The notes beneath the pieces are model-generated. The model was not told where the DNA came from and did not search any database. It saw only the letters and a list, made by a program, of their open reading frames with translations. DNA of 64,000 nt from Candidatus Dormiibacterota bacterium. GTDB taxonomy: Bacteria > Chloroflexota > Dormibacteria > Aeolococcales > Aeolococcaceae. This document shows, in pieces, positions 1 through 19,911 of the stretch. A program made the position numbers and the translations under genes. The stretch lies in the NCBI GenBank assembly GCA_049283735.1, contig JBAPWO010000146.1, positions 1,473 to 65,472 of the forward strand. The letters run 5' to 3'. Position 1 is the first letter of the stretch. Every line of letters begins with the position of its first letter.

Positions 1-1610
1 CATGGCAGGTCCCGTTCGAGTTTCCGCTCTTCCAGGCCATGGCCGCAGTGCTCATGAACCTTGGCGGTGCCGCCGACTGGGCGATGCGAGTCAGCAGCGT
101 GATCTGTTTTGTCGCGAGCGCGGTCGCAGTCTGGGGGCTGGTTCGCCATCTCTCGACACGCACGGCCGCCGGCATCGCGGTCCTCGTTTTCCTTGCATCA
201 CCGTTCAATGTCTGGTGGAGCCGGGCTTCGATGATCGAGTACATGGCGACGGCGTTCTCGGTCGGATACGTCTGGGCGGGCATGATCTGGATCGACAGCC
301 GGCAACGGCGGTTCGCGGTGCTCGCAATCGTCCTCGGCAGCCTCGCGATGCTCGTCAAGGTGACCAGCGCGGTGTTCTGGATGGTCCCGCTGTTGCTGTA
401 TTGGGGCGCGCGTTCGAAACCACCGTGGCGGCCCTGGCTACGCGAACGTCTTCGCACATCCGCCGTGCTGTTTGCCATCCCTCTGATTGCAGCCGTGCTC
501 TGGACTCATCACGCCGACGACGTCAAGGCGGCGAGCCCGGCGACGAGCTGGTTGACCAGTGAGGCGCTGTTCGGATTCAACTTCGGTTCCGTGGGCCAGC
601 GACTGGATCCCCATCAGTGGAGCAAGATCCTCCATCCGCTCGACACCCTGGTCACCGGCATGCCATTCTGGATACTCACGGTCGTGTGCCTCATGGCGAT
701 TCTGCGCGAGCGGCGCGCCGTGTGGGTTGGAATCATCCTTGCCGGCGTCCTTCCCGTGTTTACGTTCATCAATCTGTACGCGGTGCAGGCGTACTACCTG
801 GCCGCGGTGACGCCCGCGGTTGCCGCCGTCGCCGGCTACGCGCTCGACGGCGTGATCCGTCACTGGCGCGCGGCTCCGTTCCGTGTCGCGACGATGCTGG
901 TGATCATGGCCTGGCTGGGAGCAACCCTCTACATGCAACGCGATTTCCTGGCGTCGAGCTACACGGCTCCCACACCGGATCCGTCGAACGTCCTGCCCCA
1001 GGCGCGTGAGGTCGACGCGGGGACGCGGCCGCAGGATCTCATCGTCTTCGACGGACTCCAGTGGTCACCGGCGGTGCCGTATTACGCTCGCAGGCGAGGC
1101 ATCATGCTCGTCCAGATCATCGTCACGCCGAGACTGCTCAATGGGCTGCCCGGGCAGGGATACACGTACCTCTACACGCTGACCCCGCACCCAGGTCACT
1201 TCTCCCCCGATGCGCTCGCGGTGCTGCAGCGTTGGGCGTGGTTCGGCGATATCAGCCCTCACCTCTTCCGGCTCGGCGCGACCTTTGCAAGTGTCGAAGG
1301 CGCATACATGGCGGCCGCGGCGCAGCCTTTCCAGCTGGAGGGGGCTGTCTCTGTCATCACCGGCTCTCGCACGCTGATCTGCGATGGATCGACGACGGAC
1401 GTCGCGGTCTCGACGGGAGCCACGATCACGCTGCAGTTCGCCGCGCCGCTGCCGGCGCAGGCTATCACCCTGGCGGTCAACGGACGCTGGATCCCGGCCG
1501 AGAGAACGGTGGTGGTCAACCCGGATGCCTCGACGAGTGGTGCGTTGCATCTGGCGTGCGCCGGGGGGACCGAGCTCGACCTCACCGGTGTCTACGCGCA
1601 ACAACCGTGA
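1..1610 (+). CDS. GT-C fold glycosyltransferase-like integral membrane protein (PMT/ArnT-like), 5' end outside window
   Basis: Frame 3 is open from the window edge (WQVPFEFPLFQAMAAV...), track ORF 39..1610. Many hydrophobic helices are followed by a soluble C-terminal domain of about 200 aa, an architecture typical of the PMT_2/ArnT family. Confidence 0.55.
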   Translation, partial: WQVPFEFPLFQAMAAVLMNLGGAADWAMRVSSVICFVASAVAVWGLVRHLSTRTAAGIAVLVFLASPFNVWWSRASMIEYMATAFSVGYVWAGMIWIDSRQRRFAVLAIVLGSLAMLVKVTSAVFWMVPLLLYWGARSKPPWRPWLRERLRTSAVLFAIPLIAAVLWTHHADDVKAASPATSWLTSEALFGFNFGSVGQRLDPHQWSKILHPLDTLVTGMPFWILTVVCLMAILRERRAVWVGIILAGVLPVFTFINLYAVQAYYLAAVTPAVAAVAGYALDGVIRHWRAAPFRVATMLVIMAWLGATLYMQRDFLASSYTAPTPDPSNVLPQAREVDAGTRPQDLIVFDGLQWSPAVPYYARRRGIMLVQIIVTPRLLNGLPGQGYTYLYTLTPHPGHFSPDALAVLQRWAWFGDISPHLFRLGATFASVEGAYMAAAAQPFQLEGAVSVITGSRTLICDGSTTDVAVSTGATITLQFAAPLPAQAITLAVNGRWIPAERTVVVNPDASTSGALHLACAGGTELDLTGVYAQQP

Positions 1611-1625
1611 CGCCGCGACAACCCG

Positions 1626-2528
1626 TCAGGCCGGCGCGTCGCGGCCGGCGCGCTCCCCCGCGTTGAGCTCGCGCGCGGCGGTGATGAGATCCGGACGCGA
1701 CTTGATCAACACCGGAAGTGTCTCGGCGAGCGCTGCCTGGGTGATATCGACGTGACCGAGCGCCATCAACGCTCGCGCCCAGTCGATCGACTCGCCGATC
1801 GAGGGCGTCTTGCGAAGGTCGAGACGGCGTGCTGCGCGAACCACCCGTGCAACCTGGCGCGCCAGCCGATCCTCGATACCCGGAATGCGAGCGAGCAGGA
1901 TCTCGCGCTCGCGCTCGGCCGTCGGGTAGTCCAATGCGAGGAAGAGACACCGGCGACGCAGCGCCTCGCTGAGCTCGCGGGTGTTGTTGCTGGTAAGGAC
2001 CACGAACGGGCGCCGGATGCCGGTGATGGTCCCGAGCTCCGGGATGGTCACCTGGAACTCGGCGAGCACCTCGAGCAGAAGCGCCTCCGTCTCGACCTCG
2101 ACGCGGTCGACCTCGTCGATCAGCAGCACGACGTCGTCGCGTGCCCGGATCGCCGCGAGCAGTGGGCGCTCGAGCAGATACGGCTCGCTGAAGATGTCGG
2201 CTTCGATGTCCTCCCAGCCACCGGTGGCATCCGGGACGCCGCCCCCAGCTTGGATTCGCATCAGTTGTTTGCGATAGTTCCACTCGTAGAGGGCGCGGCT
2301 CTCATCGAGGCCCTCGTAGCACTGCAGCCGCAGCAGCCGTGCCTCGGTGACCGCCGCCAGCGTCTTGGCGAGCTCGGTCTTCCCCACCCCGGCAGGACCC
2401 TCGACGAGCACCGGCTTCTCGAGTCGATCGGCAAGGAATACCACCGAGGCGATCGATTCGTCGGCGAGGTAGCCGGCGGCTCGAAGCCGCTCCAGGACAT
2501 CCGCTGGGTCGCGGAAGCGCTCAGCCAT
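1626..2528 (-). CDS. MoxR/CoxD-type AAA+ ATPase
   Basis: 300 aa. Walker A is GPAGVGKT and Walker B is VLLIDEVD. Size and N-terminal helix are typical of AAA_5 MoxR. The ATG at 2528 lies 8 nt inside the upstream gene (ATGGCTGA). Confidence 0.85.
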   Translation of the reverse strand: MAERFRDPADVLERLRAAGYLADESIASVVFLADRLEKPVLVEGPAGVGKTELAKTLAAVTEARLLRLQCYEGLDESRALYEWNYRKQLMRIQAGGGVPDATGGWEDIEADIFSEPYLLERPLLAAIRARDDVVLLIDEVDRVEVETEALLLEVLAEFQVTIPELGTITGIRRPFVVLTSNNTRELSEALRRRCLFLALDYPTAEREREILLARIPGIEDRLARQVARVVRAARRLDLRKTPSIGESIDWARALMALGHVDITQAALAETLPVLIKSRPDLITAARELNAGERAGRDAPA

Positions 2529-3633
2529 GCATCAGCCCTCGCGCTCGAACAGGTTCGGTTACGGCCAGCGGCCGTGGCGGGCGCCCAACGAAGGCGTCGC
2601 CCAGCATCCGCCGAACGGCGCCCTCATCCGAGACGAGCGGGTCGTCGCCGCTGGCCTCCATGACGCGGCGAGCCGCCTCATCGAGCCCGTCCTCGGGCAT
2701 GCCCAGCGCGGAGAGCGACACCGGCAGCCGGAGTCGGTGAAGCTGCGCGAAAACGGCGACGGATGGATCGTCGGCCTCGAGCAACCGGCTGGCCTCGACG
2801 ATCGCTTCGGGCGCGCGCGCCGCCACGAGCGCGGTCGAATGGGGCAGCACCACAGCGTGGGTTTCAGCATGCGGCAGATTCCATCCGCCCCCGAGAACGT
2901 GGCACGTTCGGTGGTGGATTCCCGCACCAGCCTGCGCGAGCGCGACGCCGGCAAGACAGGCCCCGACCAGGTTGTCGGCGTGTGAGCCGAGATCGCTCGG
3001 GTCCTCCACCACGCGCGCGAGCCCGTGCGTCAGGCGGCGGCCACCCTCGCGTGCCAGAGCGCTCGTGATCGGATTGGCGCCCGCCGACCAGAGCGCTTCG
3101 AGGCAATGGGCGAGCGCGTTCATGCCGGAAGCGGCCGCCAGCCGGGGGGGCATCCCGACGCACAACTCCGGGTCGTACACGACCGTGCGAGGCAACACCT
3201 GCGCATCCGACCACGTCTGCTTGCGCCCGTCGCTGGTGCGACCCCAGATCGGGGTCATCTCGGATCCCGCGTAGGTGGTCGGCACTGCGATGAGCGGGAG
3301 ATCGCAGGCCTCTGCAACCGCCTTACCGAGCCCGGTCGCGGAGCCACCCCCCACAGTCACGACGATGTCGGCGCCGCCGCCGCGAGCCGCACGAATCGCG
3401 TCGTCAGCGATGGCGGACGGAACATGTTGCGCCGCGCTGCGCACCTCCCCAGCAAACCGAACACCAAGACCCTCACGCAGGCGATCGAGCGTGCGCGAGG
3501 TTGACGAGCCGCTGCCGATCACCAGCACCCGCTGCTTCTCGAGCCGGGCGACCTCGTCGGGGACGCGGCGCACAGCGCCGGCGGCGAAGACGACTCGCGA
3601 CGGAAGCGCCGTCCAGGTAAACGCGTAGGTCAT
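2521..3633 (-). CDS. maleylacetate reductase (iron-containing alcohol dehydrogenase fold)
   Basis: Fe-ADH motifs VTVGGGSATGLGK and His-rich HAETHAVVLPH; about 370 aa. Start chosen at MTYAFTW (ATG 3633), which overlaps the upstream stop as ATGA. The longer track ORF N-terminus is Arg-rich and implausible. Confidence 0.75.
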   Translation of the reverse strand: MTYAFTWTALPSRVVFAAGAVRRVPDEVARLEKQRVLVIGSGSSTSRTLDRLREGLGVRFAGEVRSAAQHVPSAIADDAIRAARGGGADIVVTVGGGSATGLGKAVAEACDLPLIAVPTTYAGSEMTPIWGRTSDGRKQTWSDAQVLPRTVVYDPELCVGMPPRLAAASGMNALAHCLEALWSAGANPITSALAREGGRRLTHGLARVVEDPSDLGSHADNLVGACLAGVALAQAGAGIHHRTCHVLGGGWNLPHAETHAVVLPHSTALVAARAPEAIVEASRLLEADDPSVAVFAQLHRLRLPVSLSALGMPEDGLDEAARRVMEASGDDPLVSDEGAVRRMLGDAFVGRPPRPLAVTEPVRARGLMHG

Positions 3634-5159
3634 TGCCCGAGGTCCGGGCGCGGATACCAGATCGGGAGCTGTGCATCGACATTGATCCACACTGACTTCG
3701 GCTGGGTGTACTCGTGCATCGCCTCGAATCCCATCTCGCGACCGTAGCCCGATCCCTGCACACCGCCGAAGGGCGAGGCGGGCGAGACGCGCTTGTAGGC
3801 GTTCACCCACACCATCCCCGAGCGCAGGAGCCGGGCCATCCGGTGCGCTCGCGCAAGGTCATTGGTCCAGAGCCCGCTCCCAAGCCCGTACTGCGTCGAG
3901 TTGGCGATCTGCAACGCCTCATCGGAGTCACGGAAGGTCGTGACCACGACGAAGGGACCGAACACCTCCTCCTGGCTGACGGTCGCGTCCGGACGGGCCC
4001 GGACCACTGTCGGTTGCACGTAGTAGCCGGCGGCGAGCTCGGGTGCGCTGGGAGCCTCGCCACCGCAGAGGATCTCCCCGCCTTCGGCACGCGCCACGTC
4101 GACATAGCCGAGCACCCGGTCGCGATGCAGCGCCGATGTCAGCGGCCCCATCTCGGTCGTCATGTCGAGCGGGTCTCCGATGCGAATGCCCGTGGCCACC
4201 TTCAGGAAAGCATCGAGAAAACGGTCGGCGATGCGTTCGTGCAGTAGCAACCTCGATCCGGCGATGCACGCCTGGCCCTGGTTGTGAAAGATCGCGAAGG
4301 CCGATCCGTTGACCGCCTCCTCGAGGTTCGCGTCCTCGAACACGATGTTCGCGCCCTTGCCACCGAGCTCGAGGTGGAGGCGTTTGAGAGTCGGCGCACT
4401 TGCCTCGACAAGCCGTCGCCCCACAGCCGTCGACCCGGTGAACGACAGCATGCGAATCCGTGGATGCGTCGCGATTGCCCAACCAGCCGAATTGCCATAC
4501 CCAGGCACGATGTTGACCACGCCTTCGGGGACGCCGGCCTCCTGCATCAACGCGGCGAGGCGGAGCGTGCTGAGTGGAGTGAGCTCGCTCGGCTTCATCA
4601 CCACAGCGTTGCCTGCGGCGAGCGCCGGCCCCAGCTTCCAGCTCGTGAACATCAGCGGGAAGTTCCACGGAACGATCTGGCCCACCACGCCAATGGGCTC
4701 GCGAAGCAGGTAGTTGAGGAATCCCGACTCGACCGGGACCACCGACCCTTCGTGCTTGTCGGCCATTCCCCCGAAATACCGATACCACGCCGCCGTCCGC
4801 GGAACATCGAGCCGGGTCGTGTCGCGAATCGGGTGTCCGGTGTCGACGGTCTCGAGCCTGGCCAGTTCGGCGAGGCTGTCCTCGACGAGATCGGCCAGCC
4901 GGAGCAGGATCCGGCCACGCTCGGCGGGAGCCGTAGCCGACCACGCGGGAAAGGCGCGCTCCGCCGCATCCACGGCGCGGTCGACGTCGGTCGCGCGCGC
5001 TTCGGCGATGCGCGTGATCGTCGAACCATCGTGCGGGTCGAGAACGTCGATCTCGCCCCCTTCCGTCGCATCGACCCATTGCCCGCCGATGAAGAGACGT
5101 GTCCGGAGGCCGGCCGGGTCGAGACGTGCTCGTGAAGGCAGTTGCTCGTCGAGCCCCAC
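3630..5159 (-). CDS. NAD(P)+ aldehyde dehydrogenase, probable 4-hydroxymuconic semialdehyde dehydrogenase
   Basis: ALDH motifs ELGGKGA, catalytic-Cys region GQACIAGSR and EEVFGPF; 509 aa. Its position between the dioxygenase and maleylacetate reductase genes suggests the pathway role. Confidence 0.8.
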   Translation of the reverse strand: MGLDEQLPSRARLDPAGLRTRLFIGGQWVDATEGGEIDVLDPHDGSTITRIAEARATDVDRAVDAAERAFPAWSATAPAERGRILLRLADLVEDSLAELARLETVDTGHPIRDTTRLDVPRTAAWYRYFGGMADKHEGSVVPVESGFLNYLLREPIGVVGQIVPWNFPLMFTSWKLGPALAAGNAVVMKPSELTPLSTLRLAALMQEAGVPEGVVNIVPGYGNSAGWAIATHPRIRMLSFTGSTAVGRRLVEASAPTLKRLHLELGGKGANIVFEDANLEEAVNGSAFAIFHNQGQACIAGSRLLLHERIADRFLDAFLKVATGIRIGDPLDMTTEMGPLTSALHRDRVLGYVDVARAEGGEILCGGEAPSAPELAAGYYVQPTVVRARPDATVSQEEVFGPFVVVTTFRDSDEALQIANSTQYGLGSGLWTNDLARAHRMARLLRSGMVWVNAYKRVSPASPFGGVQGSGYGREMGFEAMHEYTQPKSVWINVDAQLPIWYPRPDLGQ

Positions 5160-5170
5160 GGAGGCCCCGA

Positions 5171-6154
5171 TCAGAAGTCCACAGGGTGGCTGGGCAGCTT
5201 GCCGGTCGCGTACAGCTCCGGAAGCGCTGCGTCGGCGTTCTCCCAGACGAGCAGCATCGCCCGCTTCGGCGAATAGCCCTGGTGCCGGATGTTCGCCGGC
5301 ATCGACGCCACGTCGCCTGGTTTCATGACGACCCGGCTTCGGGCTGCTCCGGTGTCACGATCCTCGACCGCCCAGATGATCTCGTCGCTGAGCTGGAGGA
5401 ACCACTCCACCCTGTCGTTGCCATGGATGATCGGAAGGATGTACTCCTCGGTGGTGGGGCAATACAGGCTGTCCTTGCAGACGCTCACCACCGATGGGTT
5501 CCAGGTGACGTCGGATCGGGAGAGGTACGCGAAAAGGTTGTACGCCTTCACGTCCGACTCGAAACCGGGCTCGGCTTCGACCTCCGGGCTGTCCTGCGGC
5601 ACGTCGGCGAACATGCGGTTGATGGGATGGGTGGCGTCGGTGCGCAGCTGCTCGTCGTCGTCGCACGAGACCATGCGCTTGGAAGCGACCCGCCGCCGGG
5701 TCACGGCTGCGATGTTACTGCCGTTCTTGTCACCAAAGGCGCTGCCCGTCTCCTCGGGCGAGGCGAATGGATCGAACGAAGCGTTGGTCCAGTCGGCGAG
5801 CATCCGCTCGAAGGTTGCCTTGATGTTCTCGCTCGGAAAATTCTCGACGTGATCCATCTCCGCCTTGCGGTAGGCGTCATTGTAGCGGCCGGCGAAGAGG
5901 TCGACGGTGCCGTAGTGGTTGACGGTGCCGACCACGCCGTCAAAATTGACGATGCCGTAGAAGAAGTTCCAGGCGACGTCCCGCTGCATCGCTCGGAGGA
6001 AGGCGTCCACGGACATCACGTGGCTGCCCGTGGGCCATTTGACGTACACGAAGTACTCATCACGCCGGAAGTGAAACTCGCCCAGGGTGAACTCGGCATA
6101 CCCATGCGCGTTCGGCTCGCTCGCGATGACGTCGGTGTCCATGAGCAGCGTCAT
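5171..6154 (-). CDS. hydroquinone 1,2-dioxygenase large subunit (PnpD/HapD-like cupin)
   Basis: 327 aa with a C-terminal cupin. Ligand pattern is H244-x-N246-x3-E250 plus H291 (+47), the spacing I recall for the PnpD Fe(II) ligands. SD GGGAG lies 10 nt upstream of the ATG. Confidence 0.65.
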   Translation of the reverse strand: MTLLMDTDVIASEPNAHGYAEFTLGEFHFRRDEYFVYVKWPTGSHVMSVDAFLRAMQRDVAWNFFYGIVNFDGVVGTVNHYGTVDLFAGRYNDAYRKAEMDHVENFPSENIKATFERMLADWTNASFDPFASPEETGSAFGDKNGSNIAAVTRRRVASKRMVSCDDDEQLRTDATHPINRMFADVPQDSPEVEAEPGFESDVKAYNLFAYLSRSDVTWNPSVVSVCKDSLYCPTTEEYILPIIHGNDRVEWFLQLSDEIIWAVEDRDTGAARSRVVMKPGDVASMPANIRHQGYSPKRAMLLVWENADAALPELYATGKLPSHPVDF

Positions 6155-6188
6155 TTGCTTGTGACTCCCATCACTGCGTCGACCAGCC

Positions 6189-6689
6189 TCAGTGAGTCTG
6201 GCAGATCTCTCCCCATCGATACACGGTGTCTGCGCCTTCGATGGTCTGCAGCAGAACGACCGAGGGCTTGTCAGCGCGGAACCGATACGCCGCGTGCACG
6301 GGCAGCAGGGTCATGTGCCCGCGGCGGGCGACGACGCGCCCCATGCGTGGCCCGGTGGGCTCATGACCGAGGCGCACCGAGCCCTGCGTTCCGTCGGGCG
6401 GTTCCTCGTCCGGCGACAGCCGATGGAGGGTGACCTCCACCTCTCCATCCATGACCAGTGCGAACTCGTCGTGCGCCGTGCCGCGCCACTCCGACTCACC
6501 TTCCGCGCGGATGGCTTCGAGCACGTACTGGCGATTCTTGCCAACCGCGACCTTCTCGTACGGCCGCGAGTGCGCAGCGACGTCGAACACGTTCGAGAAG
6601 GTGTAACGCCTGGGATCATCGTCGATGATCTCGACGCCCCCTTTCTCGTACTGCTCCAACGCGCCGAAACGAGTGACATACGTGGGCAC
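6189..6689 (-). CDS. hydroquinone 1,2-dioxygenase small subunit (PnpC/HapC-like)
   Basis: 166 aa, immediately upstream of the large subunit; size and position match two-subunit hydroquinone dioxygenases. GTG start preceded by AGGCGAGGATAAGG. Confidence 0.55.
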   Translation of the reverse strand: MPTYVTRFGALEQYEKGGVEIIDDDPRRYTFSNVFDVAAHSRPYEKVAVGKNRQYVLEAIRAEGESEWRGTAHDEFALVMDGEVEVTLHRLSPDEEPPDGTQGSVRLGHEPTGPRMGRVVARRGHMTLLPVHAAYRFRADKPSVVLLQTIEGADTVYRWGEICQTH

Positions 6690-6796
6690 GACCTTATCCT
6701 CGCCTAATGACCTTTGTGCGGTATGCGCACATTGTGGCGCTCTACGAACACTCGAAGGTTAGGCTCGTCATCGGGGGCACGTCAAGTGATCACGGG

Positions 6797-7531
6797 TCAG
6801 GCGCGGCCGCCCCAACCCGTCGGAGCGGCGGGAGCCGCCGAGCGAGGCGATCCCGCCTCCAGTCCGCTGAGGAGGTCGCCGCCAAGCGTCGACATCTGCG
6901 CGATCACGTCCGGGATATCCGGCGTTCCGGGGAGGTGGAGCCGAAGCTCGCGCATGCCCGCCGCGTAGAGCACGGCAACGGTCTGCTGGCAGTCTTCGAG
7001 GGTCCCGACGAGCCCCGGGGCAGCCTCGGCTTCAGCCCGCAAATCCGGATCGCCGGCGAGCCTCGCGTGTGCCTCAGCCAGCGTTCGCCCCGGAGACGCC
7101 GGGAGGCAGACGGCGCTCCTTCCCGCAACGTCACGCAGCAGCGCGAGGAGCGCTCCGACGGGTGCCGGCCCGAACACGGGAACCGCGCCCGCCGCTCGCA
7201 TCGCAGCCGCTGCGGCGGCGTCGACCGCATCTGCCGAGACGTCGTAGCCGTCGGGCGTCAGGGCGCGTCGAGCGGCGACCGCGGCAGGCGTTGCAGCGCT
7301 GGCGCGCATCCAGACATCCGAACCGGGGTTGAGCGCACGCCCCGCGCCATCGTCGACGACCCACCCGATGCGAATACCGGTCGCAGCCGAGTCCGCAGGC
7401 CACGCCGAGCCAACCGGCACCCAGAGCGCCTGCCAGCCCGCGCGAGCCGCCAGGACGGACATGGGCGGGAGCGATCCTGCCCGGTGCGGGAGCAGGAGTC
7501 CCAGCTGCAGCCGTCCGGCTCTGGCGTCCAT
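6797..7531 (-). CDS. luciferase-like (LLM-class) oxidoreductase-like protein, divergent
   Basis: The C-terminal segment GTLEDCQQTVAVLYAAGMRELRLHLPG resembles the LLM family C-terminus. Start uncertain (ATG 7531 or ATG 7567). Confidence 0.35.
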   Translation of the reverse strand: MDARAGRLQLGLLLPHRAGSLPPMSVLAARAGWQALWVPVGSAWPADSAATGIRIGWVVDDGAGRALNPGSDVWMRASAATPAAVAARRALTPDGYDVSADAVDAAAAAAMRAAGAVPVFGPAPVGALLALLRDVAGRSAVCLPASPGRTLAEAHARLAGDPDLRAEAEAAPGLVGTLEDCQQTVAVLYAAGMRELRLHLPGTPDIPDVIAQMSTLGGDLLSGLEAGSPRSAAPAAPTGWGGRA

Positions 7532-7578
7532 GACAGAGATCTTGCACGCAGATGTTGAACGTCGCATCTCGACCCCGC

Positions 7579-7602
7579 CGATTCTGCGCGAGCGCAGAAT
7601 CG
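7579..7602. promoter_or_regulatory. perfect 24-nt palindrome (11-bp arms, 2-nt spacer) CGATTCTGCGC-GA-GCGCAGAATCG
   Basis: Read directly from the sequence. Lies in the divergent region between the LLM/hydroquinone genes and the vWA gene, and ends 4 nt before the vWA ATG. Confidence 0.6.
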
Positions 7603-7606
7603 CTGC

Positions 7607-9055
7607 ATGCGTGGGTCGGACGTCGTCGGCGGCGTCGTGTTGAGGATCACCTCAGCGCTCCGCCACGCGGGGGTTCCTGTCTCAACGGGGGAGGCTATCG
7701 ATGCGGCGCGTGCGCTCGAGATCATGAACGCCGGACATCGAGGCGAGGTCCGCGCCGCGCTCCGGGCGACGCTGATCAAACGACAGGACGATGTCGACAC
7801 CTTTGAACGGATCTTCGACGCCCTCATGGCCACTGTCGTCAACGACGCCGCGACGGAGGTGATGCTCCCGGCCGGACCCGCGAGCACAACCAGTTCGGTG
7901 TCGCCCACGATCGGGGAGACGGCGTCGACATCGCTCCTCGAGGAGCTCGCGGCGGCTTTGCGGGACGACGACACCGACGCGCTGCGCGCGCTCGCACCCA
8001 GGGCGGTTGACCAGCTCGCGGGGTTCGGATCGGGATCTCAGGATTCCGAGCGCGCGCTCCTGTACCGCGTGCTTCGCGGGCTCGACCTTGCCCGGATCCT
8101 GCAACGCGCCCTCCGCGAGGGCGCCGCTGTCACCGACGATTCAGCGATCGCAGCCGCGCTCGGCCCAGCGGAAATCGCGGCTCGGGTCGACGAGTTTCGC
8201 CGCCTGCTCGCGCAGGAAGTGCGCCGTCGCCTCGACCGGCGGTCCCTCCGGGACGGCCGCGGCATCCCGAGATCCTCGGCAAATCTCGAGGACGTGCCGA
8301 TCCTGGGCGCGAGCCCGTCCGACATTGCGGCGTTGCAACGAGCCCTGCGGCCGCTGGCTCGGAAGCTCGCAGTACGAGGGGCTCGCCGGCGGCGCTTCAC
8401 GCGGCGCGGGCGGCTGGATGTTCGGCGCACCATCCGCCGCTCGCTGTCCACCGGCGGAGTTCCCGTCCAGCCGCTGTGGCGCCGGCCGCGGACGACGCGG
8501 CCCGAGCTTGTCGTCCTCTGTGACGTGAGCGGCTCGGTGGCGGAGTTCGCGCGATTCACCCTGGCGCTCATGAGCGCCATGAGCGCCGAGTTTTCGGCCC
8601 TGCGTTGCTTCGCCTTCGTCGACGGCGTGGACGAGGTGACCCAAATCGTCGCGGATGCGCAGGGAGCGCTGATGCCGGGGCACGTGCTCGCTCGAACCGA
8701 CGTCGTGTGGGATGACGGTCACAGTGACTACGGTCGCGTGTGGAGCGTCTTCGCCACCCGCTTCTCGTCGGCGCTGACCCCGAGGTCCAGCCTGGTGATC
8801 ACCGGCGACGCCAGGAGCAACTACCGTGCGGCGAACGCTGCCGGGCTGGCCGCGATGGCGAGAGCCGTCCGGGAAGTGCACTGGCTCAACCCCGAACGCC
8901 GTGAACACTGGGACACCGGCGACTCGGTGATGGCCCTGTACGCGCGCAGCTGCGATTCCGTGCACGAGGTGCGAACCCTCCGCCAGCTCGAATCGGCCGC
9001 GCTCGATGTCGCGACCGGTACCTGGGCGTCGTCCGTACACTCGCAGCGTGCCTGA
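7607..9055 (+). CDS. vWA domain protein, CoxE-like (MoxR partner)
   Basis: The N-terminal [20 protein letters not shown] helix region and the C-terminal vWA with MIDAS-like CDVSGSV are typical of the VWA_CoxE family. Confidence 0.8.
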
Positions 9056-11084
9056 GCCCGACGGCGAACTGCTCATTCTTCGAAATCGTCTCGGCGACCT
9101 CGACCAGCGGATCGTTGAGCTGATCGCGGAGCGATTCCGGGTCGTCGCCCACGTCGCCACCGAGAAGGCCTCATCCGACGCCGCGATCCGAGACTCCGAC
9201 CGCGAACGCCAGGTGCTCGCGGCCGTCGAGCACATCGCACGGACCGAGGGCGCGCCCGTCAACCTGGTCCGCCGGATCTACCGCGAACTCCTCGCCGAAT
9301 CGGTGAGCAGGCAGGTCGCAAGTCGCTCAGGGGCGCACCGCGAGGTGGCACTTCGCGTCGCCGTGCGCGGCGACCAGTCGTTTGGCTTCCTCGCAGCGCA
9401 GAAGTACCTGTCGGCGCGAGACGTCGACGGCGACCTCGTCGTGACCCATACCTACCAGGCGGCGGTCGACGCTTTGAACGCAGGGGACGTGGACCTCGCG
9501 GTTCTGCCGATCGAAAACACCGCGGCCGGAAGTGTCGACGAGACCTACGATCTGCTTCGCGAGAACGAGGTGTCGATCGTCGGCGAGGAGACGTCGAGCG
9601 TCGATTACTGCCTGTGCGGTGTCAGTGACATTCCGCTCGGAGCGATCAGCCAGGTCGTGGCCGCGGTCGACGGTCTCGAGCAGTGCTCACGATTCCTCGA
9701 GACGCTCCCCAACGCGTCCCAGCTCGTGCATGTCGAGACCGGTGCCGCGATGCGGCTGGTGCGCGCCGGGGGCGATGCCACCCACGTTGCGATCGGCGCG
9801 CCCGAGGCAGCCGCCGCGCATGGGTTGGTGGTGCTTCGACACGGCATCGCCAACCACGCCGAGAACTACACACGTTTCGTCGTCCTCGCGCTGCATCCTG
9901 TCGCGGTCGAACTCACTGCACCGTGCAAGACCAGCCTGATCCTGGTCACCCGGCACGAGCACGGCGCCCTGATGCGGTCGCTCGGCGTCCTTGCGGCGAG
10001 CGGGCACTCGATGACGAAGCTCGAATCGCGTCCACGCCCCGGCCGGCCGTTCGAGTACATGTTCTTCATCGATTTCGAGGGCAACATCGCGGATCCGCGG
10101 ACCGCCGATGCGCTCGACGACCTTCGGTCCACCGCGCTGCACCTCAAGGTGCTCGGCAGCTATCCGGCGACGACCACCACCGGTGACGTTCAACCGGGAG
10201 ATGCGACGCCGCTGGTTCCCCTACCCGCCGACGCTGTCGCGTCGGAAACGGTTGCGCCACCTCGTCCGACGGCCAAGGCGTCGAAGAATTACCGTCTCGC
10301 GGGGCGGGGCGCTCGCTCCGACGACACCGTGATCCCGGTCGGCAACCTGCTGATCGGCGGCGGCGGTTTCCTCGTGATGGCGGGACCCTGCTCGGTTGAG
10401 TCCGCCGACCAGATCAATGCCACCGCGCGTGCGGTCCGCGAGGCCGGCGCGCAGATCCTTCGCGGGGGAGTGTTCAAGCCCCGAACCTCGCCATACGCGT
10501 TCCAGGGGCTCGGCTGGGAAGGCCTCGAACTGCTCGCCGCGGCCGGCAGGGCCACGGGGATGCCGATCATCAGCGAGGTCATGGCTGTCGACCAGGTCAG
10601 GCGTATGGCCGAGCTGGTCGACGTCCTCCAGGTCGGAACCCGGAACATGCAGAACTTCGACCTCTTGCGCGAACTCGGCAAGGTCGATCGCCCGATCCTG
10701 CTCAAGCGCGGTCTCTCGAGCACGATCGACGAGTGGCTGGGCGCGGCCGAGTACATCCTCGCGATCGGGAATCAGCAGGTCATGCTCTGCGAGCGGGGCA
10801 TCCGAACCTTCGAGACGAGCACGCGCAACACCCTCGACCTGTGCGCGATACCCGTGCTGCGCGAGCTGACCCACCTTCCCGTCATCGTCGATCCGAGCCA
10901 CGGCACAGGCCACCGCGCCTACGTCGCCCCGATGGCCAAGGCGGCGCGTGCGGCGGGCGCACATGGCCTCCTCATCGAGGTGCACCCGGATCCCGACAAG
11001 GCACGTTCAGACGCCGAGCAGAGTCTGTCCTTCCCGGAATTCCTCTCGCTGATGCGGGGCCTGCAGACTGTCGCTCCCGGCTAA
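9006..11084 (+). CDS. trifunctional fusion: chorismate mutase + prephenate dehydratase + ACT + DAHP synthase (type I-beta)
   Basis: One uninterrupted ORF. CM helix region [20 protein letters not shown] (about 9063-9305). PDT with ENYTRF (about 9351-9896). ACT with KLESRPRPG (about 9924-10160). DAHPS I-beta with [23 protein letters not shown] and DPSHG (about 10281-11081). Alternative GTG start at 9048. Confidence 0.85.
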
Positions 11085-12442
11085 CGCTGACGGGGTCGCT
11101 CGACCCACAGAAAGCTTGTGAAGTTCTCGTCGAGGTCCTGCAGGTCGTCCTCGACAACGCGCAGGCCGTTCAGGTCGGCAAGGATCCTGCTGCCCATGGT
11201 GGCGATGGAGTCGGCAAGCTCCCCCGTGCCGAGAAGCTCGGCCACCTTGGCCTGATCGATGAGGTCGCCACTGCCGCTCGTCTGCCTGAGATTGGCGTAT
11301 TTCTTCTCGAGGTTGGTGCGGCACTGACTGAGCACCTGGGGGTGCGTCATGACCGTGTCGACCTTCGAGAAATCGGCGCCACCGGCGATCATCAGCGCGT
11401 GCGAGATCTTGATCGCAAACTCTTCGACGATCGCAAAGCGATAGCGGGCCATCGCCGCCACCGATTCGGCGACCATTCCGCCGACGGAGTTGTGAATGGC
11501 GAAGATTCCGCGATCGACCTCGCCCTCGTGCAGCGCGCGCAGCACCCGTTCGGTGGTGTGGAGATAGACGATCTCGCACGGCACCTCGGGCGTCCGGTTC
11601 ATGTAATACCGCGCCGCGTCCTCGTTGAAGCTGCCTCGCCCGCCCTGGATGCCGACGACCATGCGGTCGGTGACGACACGATTCGGGAGCAACAGGTCGA
11701 AGACCGAGTCCTGGGCCTCCGAGAGGCGGAGGCGCATCCCCTTGGTGTGAGGGTTGAGGGTTTGCAGATCGACGAAGAGCTGCCAGGTGTCGTTGATGAC
11801 CTGGGAGGTGACCTCATGAAGCCGTCTGGTGCCGAGGGTATCGATCGGTGTCGGAGCAAAACCGAATCGTTCGAGCGTTCGACCGACGAAGTGCGTGACG
11901 CCCTGACTCTCGGCCGCGAGTCGATCGTGTTCGTCGGCTGTCATCGGCACGACCACGAGTCCTTTGGACTCGAAGTAGCGGCTCCATGCGTCGAGCGCCG
12001 CCGGCGGCAAGCGATACCCGTCAAGGACGATCGCCTGACCCTCGATGCCGCTCGCGGCAACACTGTCCGGGCCGAACAGCGGGTGGGTCAGCAGCGCCTG
12101 ATAGGTGGCGGGCAGATGACGGTCGAACACCTCGCGCGCGTGCACCTTCACCGAGAGGACGTCGATGAGCGTGCGCGCGCCGCCAAGCTCGTGAAAATGC
12201 GGCAGGTGCTCTTTGATCGTGGCCTCAAATGCGGAGATGGGCACGCAGTAGAAGACGGCATCCGACGCCAGCGTGTCACGCAGGCTCGCGGTTGATACCC
12301 CGTGCCGCTCCGCGTCGGCGCGCTGCGTTGCATCCGCATCGTATGCGCGCAGCGCGAAGTCGTCCTGCAGCATCGAGGCCCAGAGGCGTCCAAACCGGCC
12401 GAGGCCAACGACGCCGACCGTCGCCGGCAGGGCACTGTTCAT
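11081..12442 (-). CDS. fusion: prephenate/arogenate dehydrogenase (TyrA) + ACT-less prephenate dehydratase domain
   Basis: N-terminal Rossmann [19 protein letters not shown] and GVTHF (TyrA). C-terminal PDT domain with IHNSVGG and THPQVLSQC, but NFTSF in place of TRF, and no ACT domain. Start at MNSALP (ATG 12442). Confidence 0.8.
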
Positions 12443-12561
12443 CACCGGGGCTAGTCTACGGATGCGCAGGCACTGGTTCGCCGCATCGGTCCGCTGCCCC
12501 CCGACGGCGTGGCGCAACGCCCAATGCACCGAAGGCCGGGGCGTGGGTATGGTCTGCGTGC

Positions 12562-15225
12562 ATGGCGACCCCGGCTGAGCTCGAGACAACCGACCGAACC
12601 GTGCGCGACACCGCGCGGCACCAGATGCCACGTGCCCTTCGCGAGGAGGTCCGCCTGGTTGCCGACGCGCTCGGGCAGGTGATCGCCGAGCATGGCGGTG
12701 CGGAGCTTCTCGCCGATGTCGAGACCTTGCGGAGGACGGTCATCAGCGCGCGGGCCGAGGACGATGTGCGGGGTGGCTACGCATACACGGCGGACACGCT
12801 CGTCTCATCGTGGTCGCTCGATCGCGCCGAGCAGGTGGCGCAGGCGTTCACGTGCTATTTCCACCTCGTCAACCTGGCGGAAGAGCGGTATCGCGCTCGG
12901 ACGCTCCGAGAGGCGGACTTCGATGCGACCGGGACGCCGGAAGGGCTCATGGCCGCCCTCGAAGCGGTGCGCACGGAGCTCGGCGACGAGGGCCTCGACG
13001 GACTGCTTGCGAACCTTCGCGTGCACCCGGTGTTCACCGCGCATCCCACCGAAGCGCGTCGACGCGCGGTGACCTCGGTCCTTCGACGGGTCGGCGAGCA
13101 GCTCGACCGGCTGGCAGATCCGAGGGTATCGGAGGCGCCGCAGGCGGAGACCCGACGGCGATTGCTGGAGGAGGTCGACGGTCTCTGGCGCACCGCCCAG
13201 CTGCGCAGCCAGGAGCTGCAACCGCTCGATGAGGTCCGGACCCTCATGGGCGTCTTCGACGAGACTCTCTTCCGCTTGGTCCCGGCGGTCTATCGGGAGC
13301 TCAGCGCCGGGCTCGACGCGACCGACACGGGCGTGCAGCTCCCGGCCGCGCCCGCGTTTCTGCGATTTGGAAGCTGGGTGGGCGGTGACCGCGACGGAAA
13401 CCCGCAGATCACCGCCCAGGTGACCCGCGAGACGTTGCTCATCCAGTCCGAGCACATCCTGCGCGGGCTGGAGGCGGCCGCCACCCGCATCGGCACCGGA
13501 CTGACCGCCGATTCCGCGACCACGCCTCCCGACGGGCGCTTCCTCCGCCGCCTCGGCGCGGCGCTCGAGATCGGGGGCGGACGAGCCTCGGCCATCGAGG
13601 AGCGGTCCCCTCGCGAGCCGTACCGGCAGTTCCTCCTGCTTGTCGCGGAGCGCATCGCGGCGACCCGCCGGGCGGACCTGTCGCTCGCGTACGCGGGACC
13701 CGACGAGCTGCTCGATGACCTCCGCGGGGTGCAGGACGCACTCGTGGCCGCTGGGGCGCCGCGGCAGGCGTACGGAGAGCTGCACGACCTCGTCTGGCAG
13801 GTGCAAACCTTTGGATTTCACCTCGCCGACCTTGAAATCCGCCAGCACAGCACTGTCCATCGCAACGCGCTCGCCGAGATCGCCGCAGGCGGCGCGCGTT
13901 CACCCGAGACCGACGAAGTTGTGGCGACGATGCGAACCATCGCCCTTCTGCAGCAACGGTTTGGCGCTCATGTGTGCCATCGCTACGTGGTCAGCTTCAC
14001 AACCAGCGCCGATGACGTCGCCACAGTCCACACGCTCGCCGAGCGGGCCTGTGCGCCCAACCCCGCTCCGGCGCTCGATGTGGTGCCGCTGTTCGAAACC
14101 ACTGTCGATCTGAGCAATGCGCGCGCGACCCTGGACGCGATGCTCGACCTCGAGCCGGTGCGCCGGCGCATGGCCGCGACCGGGCGCGCGCTCGAGGTCA
14201 TGCTCGGGTACTCCGATTCAGCGAAGGAGAGCGGGCCCGTCACCGCAACCCTCGCCCTGTACGCTGCCCAGGCCGACCTCGCCGCGTGGGCCGCCGAGCG
14301 CTCGGTCGCGCTCACGCTCTTCCACGGTCGGGGCGGGGCGTTGGGTCGAGGCGGCGGCCCCGCGAACCGCGCCGTGATGGCACAGGCGCCGGGATCGGTG
14401 TCGGGGCGTTTCAAGGTCACCGAGCAAGGGGAGGTCATCTTCGCCAGATACGGCAATCGAACGCTGGCGCAGCGGCATCTCGAGCAGGTGACCTCGGCGG
14501 TGCTGCTCACGTCCACCGCGGCAGCCCGCCGGCGCACCGGGCAGGCGGCGATCCGGTTCGAGGCGCTCGGCCGGACCATCGACTCGGCCGCGCGCACGGC
14601 ATATCGCGACCTGATCGAGGTCGAAGGGTTCGCCGCGTACTTCGCCGAGGTGACCCCGGTCCGCGAGCTGGCTCGTCTGCACCTCGGGTCTCGCCCGTCA
14701 AACCGCGGCGGCGACAGCAGCCTGTCGTCGCTCCGGGCCATCCCCTGGGTCTTCGCGTGGTCCCAGATCCGGCTGAATCTCCCCGGGTGGTATGGCCTGG
14801 GCAGCGGCCTGGCCTCCGCGGGTCTGGATGAGCTGCGTATCGCGTATGAGGGATGGCCGCTGCTCAGAGTCCTCATCGACAACGCGGAGATGAGCCTCGC
14901 CAAGACCGATCGATTCATGGCCGCCGAGTACCTGCGCCTCGGAGGCGAGCCGCAAATCGCGGATCTGATCCTGGCGGAATACGACCGCACGATCGATGGG
15001 ATCCAGGCGGTCACCGGCCAATCCCGCCTGCTCGAGAAACGCCGGGTGCTGTCCTGGGCGGTCGAGTTGCGCAATCCCTACATCGATGCGCTCTGCCATC
15101 TCCAGCTTCGCGCGCTTCGGGCACTGCGCAGTGGCGACGCTGCGGATGCCGACCGCAGGCGGTTGGAGCAGCTCCTGCTGTTGACGGTGAACGGCATCGC
15201 AGCCGGATTGCAGAACACCGGATAA
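12562..15225 (+). CDS. ppc: phosphoenolpyruvate carboxylase
   Basis: Motifs VFTAHPTE and GYSDSAKESG plus C-terminal QNTG. Start at MATPAELE (ATG 12562); the upstream part of the track ORF is Arg/Pro-rich junk. Confidence 0.9.
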   Translation: MATPAELETTDRTVRDTARHQMPRALREEVRLVADALGQVIAEHGGAELLADVETLRRTVISARAEDDVRGGYAYTADTLVSSWSLDRAEQVAQAFTCYFHLVNLAEERYRARTLREADFDATGTPEGLMAALEAVRTELGDEGLDGLLANLRVHPVFTAHPTEARRRAVTSVLRRVGEQLDRLADPRVSEAPQAETRRRLLEEVDGLWRTAQLRSQELQPLDEVRTLMGVFDETLFRLVPAVYRELSAGLDATDTGVQLPAAPAFLRFGSWVGGDRDGNPQITAQVTRETLLIQSEHILRGLEAAATRIGTGLTADSATTPPDGRFLRRLGAALEIGGGRASAIEERSPREPYRQFLLLVAERIAATRRADLSLAYAGPDELLDDLRGVQDALVAAGAPRQAYGELHDLVWQVQTFGFHLADLEIRQHSTVHRNALAEIAAGGARSPETDEVVATMRTIALLQQRFGAHVCHRYVVSFTTSADDVATVHTLAERACAPNPAPALDVVPLFETTVDLSNARATLDAMLDLEPVRRRMAATGRALEVMLGYSDSAKESGPVTATLALYAAQADLAAWAAERSVALTLFHGRGGALGRGGGPANRAVMAQAPGSVSGRFKVTEQGEVIFARYGNRTLAQRHLEQVTSAVLLTSTAAARRRTGQAAIRFEALGRTIDSAARTAYRDLIEVEGFAAYFAEVTPVRELARLHLGSRPSNRGGDSSLSSLRAIPWVFAWSQIRLNLPGWYGLGSGLASAGLDELRIAYEGWPLLRVLIDNAEMSLAKTDRFMAAEYLRLGGEPQIADLILAEYDRTIDGIQAVTGQSRLLEKRRVLSWAVELRNPYIDALCHLQLRALRALRSGDAADADRRRLEQLLLLTVNGIAAGLQNTG

Positions 15226-16942: not shown

Positions 16943-18099
16943 TTGTCGCCGGATCGGCCGCTGCGCGCGCGCATGTCTTCGATCGCCCGTCGCGCCGCCC
17001 GGCGAACGAGTGCGCCGGCGTGACGCATCGGGTCGACGTCGGGATCGATGCTGTCCAGGGACAGCGCGGCGCTGAAGAGGCGCGGCAGCGCATCCACAAC
17101 CGCGCCCGCGATGGCGATGCAAGGAACACCGCGCAGCGTGGCTCTGGCGGCGACCTCGGCCGGCGCCTTGCCGGTCGAGGTCTGACGGTCCAGGCGTCCC
17201 TCACCGGTGATGGCGACAGTCGCGTCGCGCAAGGCGCTATCGAGGCCGACGAGGTCGCAGACGGCGCGAGCACCCGGCACCAGGCGAGCGCCCGCAAGGG
17301 CGAGCCCGAATCCGCACCCGCCTGCCGCGCCCGCACCGGGAATCCCGGCGACGTCGCCGCCGCCCATCCCTGCAGCAACCGCGGCGAGATGTGTCAGGGC
17401 TCGCTCGAGACGCATCACGTCGTCAGCACTGGCGCCCTTCTGGGGGGCAAACATTCGCGCGGCGCCCTGAGGCCCGAGCAGCGGACTTCGAATGTCGCAT
17501 GCCACCTCGATCGAGCATTGCGACAGCGCGCGTCGCACCGCGGACAGGTCGATGGCTTCGACGTCCTCGAGCCCGGCACCGCCAGGACCAATCTCTGTTC
17601 CGCGCGAGTCGGTCAGACGACCGCCAAGCGCCTGGAGCAGGCCGGCTCCGCCGTCGGTGCACGCGCTCCCGCCGACTCCGACAACGATACGTCGCGCCCC
17701 AGCGTCCAACGCGATGCGGATGAGCTCGCCGGTCCCGCACGAGGTGGCGTGCAGCGCGTCGAGCGCGTTGACATCGAGGCGCCGGAGCCCGGACGCTTCG
17801 GCAAGCTCGACGACCACCTCGTCATCCCCGAGCCATCCCAGGCGTGCGGTCAAGGGTTTGCCGGTAGGACCGGTTACGCGATGGCGGGTGACCCGGGACG
17901 CCGATCCCCGCGCGGCCAGGAGCACGTCAAGGGTGCCGTCACCTCCGTCCGCGACCGGCACCTCGACCGCGTCGGCGCCCGCATCGCGGACACCGCGCGC
18001 CATCGCCGCCGCCGCGGCCCGCGCGCTGAGCGTGCCCTTGAAAGCGTTCGGTGCGCAGACCGCGGTGAAGCTCGGAGCATGAGACGTTTGTGGACGCAT
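16939..18099 (-). CDS. glxK: glycerate kinase
   Basis: Motifs APNAFKGTLSA and PVADGGDGTLD are typical of the GlxK/GarK family. ATG 18099 chosen (alternative GTG 18126). Confidence 0.85.
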   Translation of the reverse strand: MRPQTSHAPSFTAVCAPNAFKGTLSARAAAAAMARGVRDAGADAVEVPVADGGDGTLDVLLAARGSASRVTRHRVTGPTGKPLTARLGWLGDDEVVVELAEASGLRRLDVNALDALHATSCGTGELIRIALDAGARRIVVGVGGSACTDGGAGLLQALGGRLTDSRGTEIGPGGAGLEDVEAIDLSAVRRALSQCSIEVACDIRSPLLGPQGAARMFAPQKGASADDVMRLERALTHLAAVAAGMGGGDVAGIPGAGAAGGCGFGLALAGARLVPGARAVCDLVGLDSALRDATVAITGEGRLDRQTSTGKAPAEVAARATLRGVPCIAIAGAVVDALPRLFSAALSLDSIDPDVDPMRHAGALVRRAARRAIEDMRARSGRSGDN

Positions 18100-18151
18100 G
18101 AGTGTGCATGGTGAGGAATCGCTCACCGCATGCGGCGGTCAGAATGTTCCG

Positions 18152-19384: not shown

Positions 19385-19911
19385 ATGACCAGCTCGCGTG
19401 GTCGCTTCCTGCTGCTGGGCTCCGCGGAGTTCGAGCCATGGGTGGCCGAAGCGGAGCGATTCGCGCTGTCCGGCGCCGCCGGCGATGGCTCGGCATGGTG
19501 CTCTTCAGCGGCGGCAGCCCGAAGTACCTCGCCCAGACTCTGACCGGCACTCCGGTGTGGGATGGCGTACAGCGGCTGCTCGACAGAGGTGGCGTCTTTG
19601 CGGGGTGCAGCGCCGGCGCGATGATCGCGGGCACCACTGGGATGCAGTTCCCGTTTGGCAGCGGCTTGGGCTTGCTGCGCGCAACCGCCATCGGCGTCCA
19701 TTGGGATGCGCTATCGGGATGGTGGATAGGCTGGCTCCGCGACCTCGCGCCGCGCCGCCTGCAGTCCGCCGTTGGCTTCCTGGGAATCGCCGAGCACACT
19801 GCAATTGCGTCAGACGGTGATACCTGGCGCGTATTCGGCACCGGCGTCGTGGACGTTCGTCGGGACCACGAGCGGCACGCGTTCGGAGCGGGAGAGGCGT
19901 TCCCGAGATAG
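19385..19911 (+). pseudogene. decayed peptidase S51 / class-I glutamine amidotransferase-like gene (internal deletion plus frameshift)
   Basis: The frame starting at ATG 19385 encodes MTSSRGRFLLLGSAEFEPW... (S51 N-terminus) and stops at 19543. Another frame (track ORF 19438..19911) carries the rest, including the nucleophile motif GCSAGAM. About 55 aa present in the intact paralogue at 24475..25257 are missing. Confidence 0.55.

Follow-up and report, generated by a model that had tools for sequence, protein, structure and literature searches.

The window analysed here is a 64,000-nt stretch of contig JBAPWO010000146.1 from a Candidatus Dormiibacterota bacterium. On its minus strand lies an operon predicted to specify the cleavage of hydroquinone, and within and beside this operon are genes for a MoxR-class ATPase, a von Willebrand A (vWA) protein and a small protein with the fold of luciferase-like monooxygenases (LLM), the three proteins with which we are concerned. 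The dioxygenase itself is encoded by two genes separated by 34 nt. The upstream one (6189–6689, minus strand) specifies a small subunit of 166 aa (PnpC/HapC/HqdA), to which no Pfam or NCBIfam model gives a match; comparison with PDB chains identifies it (6.4e-62 against 5M21_A, 1.9e-46 against 4ZXA_A). The downstream one (5171–6154, minus strand) specifies the large catalytic cupin subunit (PnpD/HapD/HqdB), which matches PnpCD_PnpD_N (2.5e-53) and, over its full length, chains 5M21_B (1.1e-133) and 4ZXA_W (5.8e-132); its closest relative, a PnpD encoded on a contig of a metagenome-assembled genome (MAG), is 99% identical. Residues H244, N246, E250 and H291 of the large subunit, which we take to be the Fe ligands of the PnpCD structure, are invariant among the aligned homologues. 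With both subunits recognized, the pair is assigned to the two-subunit (type II) hydroquinone 1,2-dioxygenases and is predicted to cleave hydroquinone to 4-hydroxymuconic semialdehyde in an Fe(II)-dependent manner.

Three further genes follow on the same strand: one for an aldehyde dehydrogenase (3630–5159; Aldedh, 4.9e-175), in the position of the 4-hydroxymuconic semialdehyde dehydrogenase (HapE/PnpE); one for a protein of the Fe-ADH family and of the maleylacetate-reductase type (2521–3633; ADH_Fe_C 1.6e-31, Fe-ADH 1.4e-26), in the HapF/PnpF position; and the MoxR gene (1626–2528). The Fe-ADH family is the one annotated as "maleylacetate reductase" at the equal position of proteobacterial operons, and the predicted products PnpC, PnpD, aldehyde dehydrogenase and maleylacetate reductase make up a complete hydroquinone-to-maleylacetate branch. 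The aldehyde dehydrogenase and reductase genes overlap as ATGA at 3633–3630. The reductase and MoxR genes overlap by 8 nt at 2528–2521 (ATGGCTGA), and a Shine–Dalgarno-like GAGGG stands 7 nt upstream of the MoxR ATG; judged from these junctions, MoxR is translationally coupled to the catabolic genes. It is also the last gene of the operon, since a convergent gene for a PMT_2-family glycosyltransferase (39–1610, plus strand) ends at 1610, 15 nt past the MoxR stop codon. The order small subunit, large subunit, aldehyde dehydrogenase, reductase is the one annotated in loci of Pseudomonas, Caballeronia, Burkholderia, Massilia and Conchiformibius; the Sphingobium locus has one additional gene between those for the large subunit and the aldehyde dehydrogenase. 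The window operon is without the downstream intradiol (hydroxyquinol) dioxygenase gene and the small Rieske and YciI genes of proteobacterial clusters. An earlier reading of this DNA, made from its letters alone (the sequence-only reading), had named the five minus-strand genes with their families, both overlaps and a hapCDEF-like order. The list of open reading frames (ORFs), the Pfam and NCBIfam scans and the PDB-chain matches bore out all five genes, both overlaps are present in the sequence, and the order equals that of the annotated proteobacterial operons.

The MoxR protein (300 aa, minus strand) matches AAA_5 (2.8e-13), AAA (3.5e-10) and AAA_3 (4.1e-10). It consists of a single AAA+ module of ~300 aa with Walker A (GPAGVGKT) and Walker B (LLIDEVD) motifs, and a gene partner with a VWA domain and a metal-ion-dependent adhesion site (MIDAS) is found 5 kb away, features that place it in the MoxR class as a CoxD-like member. 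The partner (7607–9055, plus strand; 482 aa) is a CoxE-type vWA protein that matches VWA_CoxE (PF05762) at 1.5e-42 (145.9 bits against a cutoff of 26.4); its MIDAS motif, DVSGS, is intact, and D306, S308 and S310 are invariant in the homologue alignment. The profile searches proposed in the sequence-only reading thus confirmed all of the AAA_5, VWA_CoxE and PnpCD_PnpD_N families. The likeness of the pair to CoxD/CoxE, also claimed there, holds by Pfam, but the NCBIfam equivalog cutoffs were not reached: the best NCBIfam match of MoxR is MadB (NF047784), with 307 bits against a cutoff of 475, the vWA protein scores 175 bits against a cutoff of 600 on MadC (NF047783), and the GvpN model gives MoxR only 37 bits. 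MadB and MadC were not used as names, as every relative tested also falls far below the equivalog cutoffs; literature searches did not yield the meaning of "Mad". Sequence and profile searches of the PDB returned only Midasin, RuvB, ClpB and p97 for the ATPase, with no close solved relative among them; for the vWA protein no relative of solved structure came up.

The stop codon of the vWA gene is abutted or overlapped by an ORF of 692 aa (9006–11084, plus strand) in which chorismate mutase, prephenate dehydratase and 3-deoxy-D-arabino-heptulosonate 7-phosphate synthase domains are joined in an unusual triple fusion, and the two genes may be co-transcribed. The triple fusion is kept in the Dormibacterota relatives L001, L002 and L009–L012. 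Beyond it in the window lie a PDH_N+PDT fusion gene (11081–12244, minus strand) and a phosphoenolpyruvate carboxylase gene (12229–15225, plus strand).

The 0.9-kb interval between pnpC and the vWA gene contains a conserved gene overlooked in the sequence-only reading (6797–7531, minus strand; the ORF may extend to 7567), the first on the operon strand, which encodes the LLM-like protein of 244 aa. The vWA gene is transcribed divergently, as that reading stated, but its nearest neighbour is this LLM-like gene, at most 75 nt away, and not pnpC or a bare control region. Codon-position GC content left the strand of the 6.8–7.5 kb ORF undecided; it was settled by homology to Bac_luciferase proteins and by a database call, the recorded protein P0241, which is identical across the 244 residues and starts at M13 of the ORF. 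The window protein itself scores on no Pfam or NCBIfam model, Bac_luciferase (PF00296) included. However, BLASTP relates it to a Bac_luciferase protein of locus L090 (1e-17), the homologue from Rokubacteria (locus L026) scores 91.6 bits on Bac_luciferase, and the L090 and P0290 homologues also match; full-length homologues pass the Bac_luciferase threshold and lean to F420-dependent families. An AlphaFold2 model made with 25 homologues reached a mean predicted local distance difference test (pLDDT) score of 86.4 and a predicted TM-score of 0.84, and its best PDB matches in Foldseek were SfnG, 3RAO, SsuD, MsuD, F420-G6PDH and Mer (8.6e-8 to 1e-4; TM-score ~0.6, best 0.63). The product of 6797–7531 is accordingly modelled as a TIM barrel of the LLM type. 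It is ~80–100 residues shorter than its PDB matches, and the Dormibacterota proteins have lost ~70–80 residues in comparison with bona fide LLMs. The C-terminus of the family reads ...PRSxAPxAPxGWGGR followed by one residue (usually Pro or Ala; Ala in the window), the codons for which lie within 6797–6868. This GWGGR tail is predicted to be disordered (pLDDT <65). Relatives that are full length and match Bac_luciferase have it too, and it may serve vWA or MoxR as a peptide for docking or threading.

The neighbourhoods of other pnpD genes were then compared. A PnpD-alignment scan of one genome per GTDB species gave 80 loci, from Dormibacterota, Acidobacteriota, Actinomycetota (Acidimicrobiia and Actinomycetes), Rokubacteria and Chloroflexota; nearly all are MAG contigs, some with frameshifts. 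These loci were mapped by tblastn with the window proteins and the proteins of relatives. The counts of presence that follow are for the 52 species-level loci flanked by 9 kb or more on each side, and features were scored within 10 kb of PnpD. A vWA homologue was found at 45 of the 52 loci, an LLM homologue at 35 and a MoxR homologue at 30; vWA and MoxR are both present at 25, and one or the other at 50 (96%). The aldehyde dehydrogenase gene occupies its conserved position after pnpD at 34. A lack of MoxR and vWA genes at all other PnpCD loci would, by the sequence-only reading, have told against its proposal; clearly such loci do carry them, in about five non-proteobacterial phyla.

The positions of the three genes in the PnpCD loci were also recorded. 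The vWA gene is upstream and divergent at 59 of 63 places, within 5.2 kb of pnpD, and the LLM gene is paired divergently with it at 50 of 58 places. MoxR directly follows PnpD at 5 loci, lies farther downstream on the same strand at 28 and is upstream, beyond vWA, at 9; at least four different gene orders, or MoxR positions relative to PnpD, are represented. Dormibacterota relatives share the layout vWA← →LLM–PnpC–PnpD–aldehyde dehydrogenase–(reductase)–MoxR; in three of them (L001, L002 and L012) the reductase is absent and MoxR is retained directly after the aldehyde dehydrogenase gene. At L022, L090 and L154 the trio is found downstream as MoxR→ ←vWA LLM→, moving as a unit. Five full-flank loci have vWA and/or MoxR and neither the aldehyde dehydrogenase nor the reductase: four of these (L023, L031, L035 and L084) carry MoxR, vWA and LLM, and L088 carries vWA only. 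Two loci with shorter flanks (L026 and L087) have the same minimal set, again without the two enzymes. It is therefore PnpCD, and not the downstream enzymes, that is the constant partner. At loci of the Ilumatobacteraceae type (L057, L058, L071 and L088) vWA is directly divergent from pnpC and no LLM gene was detected. A linkage that outlasts so much rearrangement, at PnpD identities to the window of only 71–77%, speaks for selection that keeps these genes together and against mere inheritance of synteny. On these comparisons vWA, LLM and MoxR form a module with an evolutionary tie to PnpCD, and a functional linkage of the module to the hydroquinone dioxygenase is quite probable.

Two individual loci of the survey deserve mention for other reasons. 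At L090, a locus unrelated to the window, a PMT_2/YkcB_C gene (17445–19493) adjoins the MoxR/vWA/LLM trio, as a PMT_2 gene adjoins MoxR in the window; this may be coincidence. One Ilumatobacteraceae MAG (CAVSZO01) has two PnpCD loci, of which one has a divergent vWA gene and the other has no vWA or MoxR gene within 10 kb (L059/L062).

A 17-nt perfect palindrome, TGTGCGGTATGCGCACA, lies between the LLM gene and pnpC of the window (6715–6731, strandless), 26–42 nt before the pnpC start. At many loci, belonging to several phyla, variants of the form TGTnCG-N5-CGnACA precede pnpC by 40–110 nt, and the palindrome is a likely candidate for the operator of the pnp operon. A gene of the IclR family is found between the LLM gene and pnpC at 23 of the 52 loci, none of them from Dormibacterota. 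A scan for promoters and terminators gave nothing beyond chance level.

Nine proteobacterial PnpD loci were available from a plasmid collection, all of them plasmid-borne (Pseudomonas, Caballeronia, Paraburkholderia, Burkholderia, Sphingobium, Novosphingobium, Massilia, Variovorax and Conchiformibius). None of the nine (225 kb) has a MoxR, vWA or LLM homologue within 12 kb of PnpD. In seven (L092–L094, L175–L177 and L180) the operon ends with a gene for a small Rieske 2Fe-2S protein of ~110–130 aa, situated ~4.4–5.9 kb downstream of the pnpD start and often preceded by a YciI-family gene. At the non-proteobacterial loci no ferredoxin or Rieske gene was found, and tblastn with the proteobacterial-type Rieske protein, which is small and fast-evolving, did not detect it at any of them. 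The distributions of MoxR/vWA/LLM and of the Rieske protein are complementary, as would be expected if the one enzyme were served by either of two accessory systems, albeit in a small proteobacterial sample. The proteobacterial Rieske protein is a candidate for the reactivating ferredoxin of the dioxygenase. No function for it was found in the literature, and neither the papers on P. putida DLL-E4 nor a review on hydroquinone mention Rieske or ferredoxin genes.

Why a hydroquinone dioxygenase might be accompanied by such proteins is suggested by the behaviour of the purified enzyme, which loses activity in oxygen and is partially rescued by Fe(II) plus ascorbate (PMC3222310). In the same study 0.1 mM H2O2 inactivated the enzyme in a minute or less, its own substrate did so irreversibly, and the authors invoked a ferredoxin-type reactivation in vivo (PMC3222310). 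Since the enzyme is inactivated by O2, H2O2 and substrate and partly rescued by Fe(II) and ascorbate, it plausibly needs help; the labile iron supposed in the sequence-only reading agrees with these data. NorQ/NorD, a MoxR/VWA pair, serves in the insertion of non-haem Fe into the nitric oxide reductase cNOR (PMC9976466, PMC13036017). That no such pair had been described for a ring-cleavage dioxygenase, as the same reading stated, is consistent with our literature search, which linked MoxR/vWA to neither hydroquinone nor ring-cleavage dioxygenases. By analogy, MoxR, vWA and the LLM-fold protein may form a module by which the Fe(II) hydroquinone dioxygenase is matured or reactivated, a proposal to which we give a probability of roughly 0.5. 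Here PnpCD as the client, a process that concerns iron and every mechanistic step are what we infer.

In such a scheme, vWA, with its MIDAS site and long N-terminal region, would recruit a MoxR hexamer to the PnpC2D2 dioxygenase, and ATP-driven remodelling would expose the buried cupin Fe site, allowing Fe(II) to be inserted, or oxidized or lost iron to be re-reduced or replaced. The LLM-fold protein would either supply reducing equivalents or dock as a scaffold through its GWGGR tail; its full-length relatives are closest to F420-type oxidoreductases. Most of the phyla with the module are known producers of F420. The small Rieske protein at the operon end might provide the corresponding upkeep in Proteobacteria. 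Other vWA adaptors of the same genome may use the ATPase as well, the PnpCD-linked vWA/LLM pair being the client-specific part. Put together, this would be a three-component ATP-dependent reactivase (MoxR as motor, vWA as client-specific adaptor and an F420-type LLM protein with a GWGGR docking tail, the motor maybe shared) that keeps the cupin Fe(II) metallated and reduced, as a counterpart, within the sampled non-proteobacterial lineages, of ferredoxin-type reactivation in Proteobacteria. In this full form the model is tentative, and we hold it to be somewhat more doubtful than the general proposal of a maturation or reactivation module.

Several points weigh against that proposal. The evidence is all comparative, and the PnpD-anchored survey, taken alone, is compatible with the LLM-fold protein being the real client. 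The LLM-like protein of the window is shortened and below every family threshold, which makes a catalytic (reductase) role doubtful. At 20 of the 52 PnpCD loci, mostly from Acidimicrobiia, vWA is without MoxR within 10 kb, and at 2 neither was found. The comparison with the Rieske protein draws on nine plasmid loci and on tblastn with a fast-evolving small protein, and the proteobacterial enzymes work, and were crystallized, without MoxR/vWA factors. Furthermore, when metagenome contigs were scanned with MoxR as the anchor (a sample of 80 loci with MoxR identities of 55–69%, many on short contigs), most loci were tandem MoxR→vWA pairs on contigs where PnpCD was not detected, 21 of the 80 were beside proB, proA or nadD, and linkage to PnpCD or LLM was seen in only 5. 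Five loci from a protein look-up (L005–L007, L181 and L182) also lie beside proB, proA or nadD. The homologues with 67–69% identity are found in the context obg–proB–proA–MoxR–vWA–...–nadD–rsfS, with no PnpCD nearby, and one proA-linked tandem pair comes from a MAG named Acidimicrobiia. Where an LLM gene was present in the MoxR-anchored set, it accompanied only the split form of the MoxR/vWA pair. Given that most sampled MoxR relatives are tandem pairs without PnpCD, many of them proA-linked, the "dedicated" AAA+/vWA system envisaged in the sequence-only reading is not established. An ACT-domain gene often follows the proA-linked tandem pair; a hypothetical gene beside such a pair was considered as an LLM homologue and rejected, its only similarity being a weak ACT-domain match.

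The relationship between the two contexts was analysed with neighbour-joining trees on p-type distances. In the MoxR tree PnpCD-linked and proA-linked ATPases are interleaved, which also counts against a module made for this dioxygenase; the ATPase is therefore not demonstrably specialized. In view of the tandem pairs without PnpCD, it is probably not exclusive to PnpCD. The vWA tree sorts by context, with a tandem or proA-linked clade in 74 of 100 bootstraps and the PnpCD-linked set separated in 61 of 100. According to this tree, PnpCD-linked vWAs are a lineage of their own and the adaptor is specialized. That 20 PnpCD loci have vWA without a local MoxR, and that Acidimicrobiia carry the proA-linked pair, suggests that several vWA adaptors may draw on one MoxR motor, with vWA/LLM as the pair specific to PnpCD.

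The module could also serve the pathway through a client or a process other than the PnpD iron centre. The LLM-fold protein might be the client of MoxR/vWA, or an F420- or FMN-dependent enzyme of the pathway (for example a reductase of benzoquinone to hydroquinone, or the enzyme of a hydroquinone-generating step), or the module might assemble the PnpC2D2 heterotetramer. The almost invariant divergent pairing of LLM with vWA (50 of 58 places) would be expected from such a role, as would the restriction of LLM to split MoxR/vWA pairs in the MoxR-anchored set and the leaning of full-length homologues, which pass the Bac_luciferase threshold, to F420-dependent families; moreover, proteobacterial pnp clusters need a benzoquinone reductase. 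However, with ~70–80 residues lost and no family match, the Dormibacterota LLM protein fits a scaffold better than an enzyme, and the Ilumatobacteraceae-type loci, with vWA and no detected LLM, indicate that vWA can accompany PnpCD alone. We regard this group of explanations as rather unlikely, although not to be neglected. It is less probable still that MoxR/vWA is a general housekeeping chaperone, the actinobacterial proA–nadD pair, which came to lie beside PnpCD through synteny or hitch-hiking. The homologues of 55–69% identity, mostly tandem and many in the obg–proB–proA–MoxR–vWA–nadD–rsfS context, speak for this, as does the interleaving of both contexts in the MoxR tree. Yet inheritance alone is unlikely to account for a linkage that recurs in about five phyla, in varied gene orders and with PnpD only 71–77% identical; the PnpCD-linked vWAs form a separate lineage, minimal loci exist with only PnpC, PnpD, MoxR, vWA and LLM, and no vWA homologue was seen in the remaining ~55 kb of the window or in the 225 kb covered by the proteobacterial loci.

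Hydroquinone and benzoquinone are redox-active toxins, so a regulatory or protective module (a sensor of quinone or redox stress, or a quality-control system) or a MoxR–vWA system of conflict and defence may be thought of as well. MoxR–vWA pairs are indeed also contained in conflict systems (PMC7159879). Nevertheless, the PADLOC models gave only generic P-loop matches for MoxR (20–22 bits) and none for vWA or LLM, the module proteins have no DNA-binding or signalling domains, regulation is already explained by the IclR genes and the conserved palindrome, and MoxR is, as predicted from the gene overlap, translationally coupled to catabolic genes. An anti-phage or conflict function was rejected, as no PADLOC defence family was matched, and the regulatory and protective versions together with it appear very improbable.

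Among characterized systems, the proposed module would by function be most like NorQ/NorD, whereas by sequence it is CoxD/CoxE-like. It shares with NorQ/NorD the combination of a MoxR-class ATPase and a MIDAS-bearing VWA protein, the location of the genes at the operon of the client and, by our proposal, a client with a non-haem iron site that needs loading (PMC9976466, PMC13036017). It differs in that the window ATPase is CoxD-like by Pfam and not of the NorQ/CbbQ/GvpN subgroup; in its proposed client, a soluble two-subunit cupin dioxygenase, cNOR being a membrane-bound relative of haem-copper-type oxidases; and in the split, divergent arrangement of the ATPase and VWA genes with an additional LLM-fold partner. 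CoxD/CoxE, which act on the Mo-Cu centre of CO dehydrogenase (CODH), are the closest families (VWA_CoxE, 146 bits; an AAA_5 ATPase of ~300 aa). However, unlike at CoxD/CoxE(/CoxF/CoxG) loci, no gene of the CODH or xanthine dehydrogenase family is among the genes identified within ~10 kb, be it in the window or in its close relatives, and a function in CODH maturation was rejected on this genomic context. The Dormibacterota locus L004 has, besides its PnpCD-linked pair, a separate AAA/VWA_CoxE pair next to a COXG-domain gene. Its ATPase, only 51% identical to the window MoxR, is placed on a long branch as outgroup of the PnpCD-linked clade, for which reason the PnpCD-linked pair is considered distinct from the CoxD/E-type set. 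This second pair with its COXG-domain gene may be a CODH-type CoxD/E/G set; it comes after a molybdate-type ABC transporter (a MerR/TOBE regulator, an SBP_bac_11 binding protein, a permease and an ATPase with a TOBE domain), and the PnpCD-linked MoxR lies ~8 kb upstream of this whole region (12933–18095 of L004).

A different comparison is with the XylT-type ferredoxin, which reactivates extradiol (catechol 2,3-) dioxygenases, and the proteobacterial Rieske protein, which likewise are accessory genes inside a ring-cleavage operon proposed to keep a labile Fe(II) active, although the role of the Rieske protein in proteobacterial pnp operons is itself only a candidate one. The difference would be that the module acts by ATP-driven remodelling, possibly with an F420- or flavin-linked reduction, rather than by simple electron transfer. 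The closest sequences outside PnpCD loci are those of the very common actinobacterial proA–nadD tandem pair (MoxR 55–69%, vWA ~43% identity), which is apparently of the Rv2426c/Rv2425c type; Rv2426c is listed as "ATPase AAA". That pair differs in its tandem, translationally coupled order, in having neither an LLM partner nor PnpCD within 10 kb, and in the separate clade of its vWA.

To our knowledge, MoxR–vWA pairs belong to the most widespread AAA+ systems of bacteria and few of their clients are known, namely cNOR, CODH, Rubisco, methanol dehydrogenase and the targets of RavA/ViaA. The conserved neighbourhood described here points to a new class of client, the two-subunit hydroquinone dioxygenase, which is soluble, easily assayed and already crystallized, and the LLM-fold protein would be a third partner new to MoxR/VWA maturation systems. 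This would offer a tractable system in which to ask how MoxR/vWA machines load or repair mononuclear Fe(II) sites, and it could explain the upkeep of oxygen-labile ring-cleavage enzymes where an XylT-like or Rieske gene is not found at the locus. It may also be relevant to the heterologous expression of the dioxygenase for the bioremediation of nitrophenols, alkylphenols and paracetamol. Finally, the module-bearing hydroquinone pathway is common in uncultured soil phyla (Dormibacterota, Acidimicrobiia, Chloroflexota and Rokubacteria), a distribution which suggests that it may be an under-appreciated route of aromatic carbon turnover.

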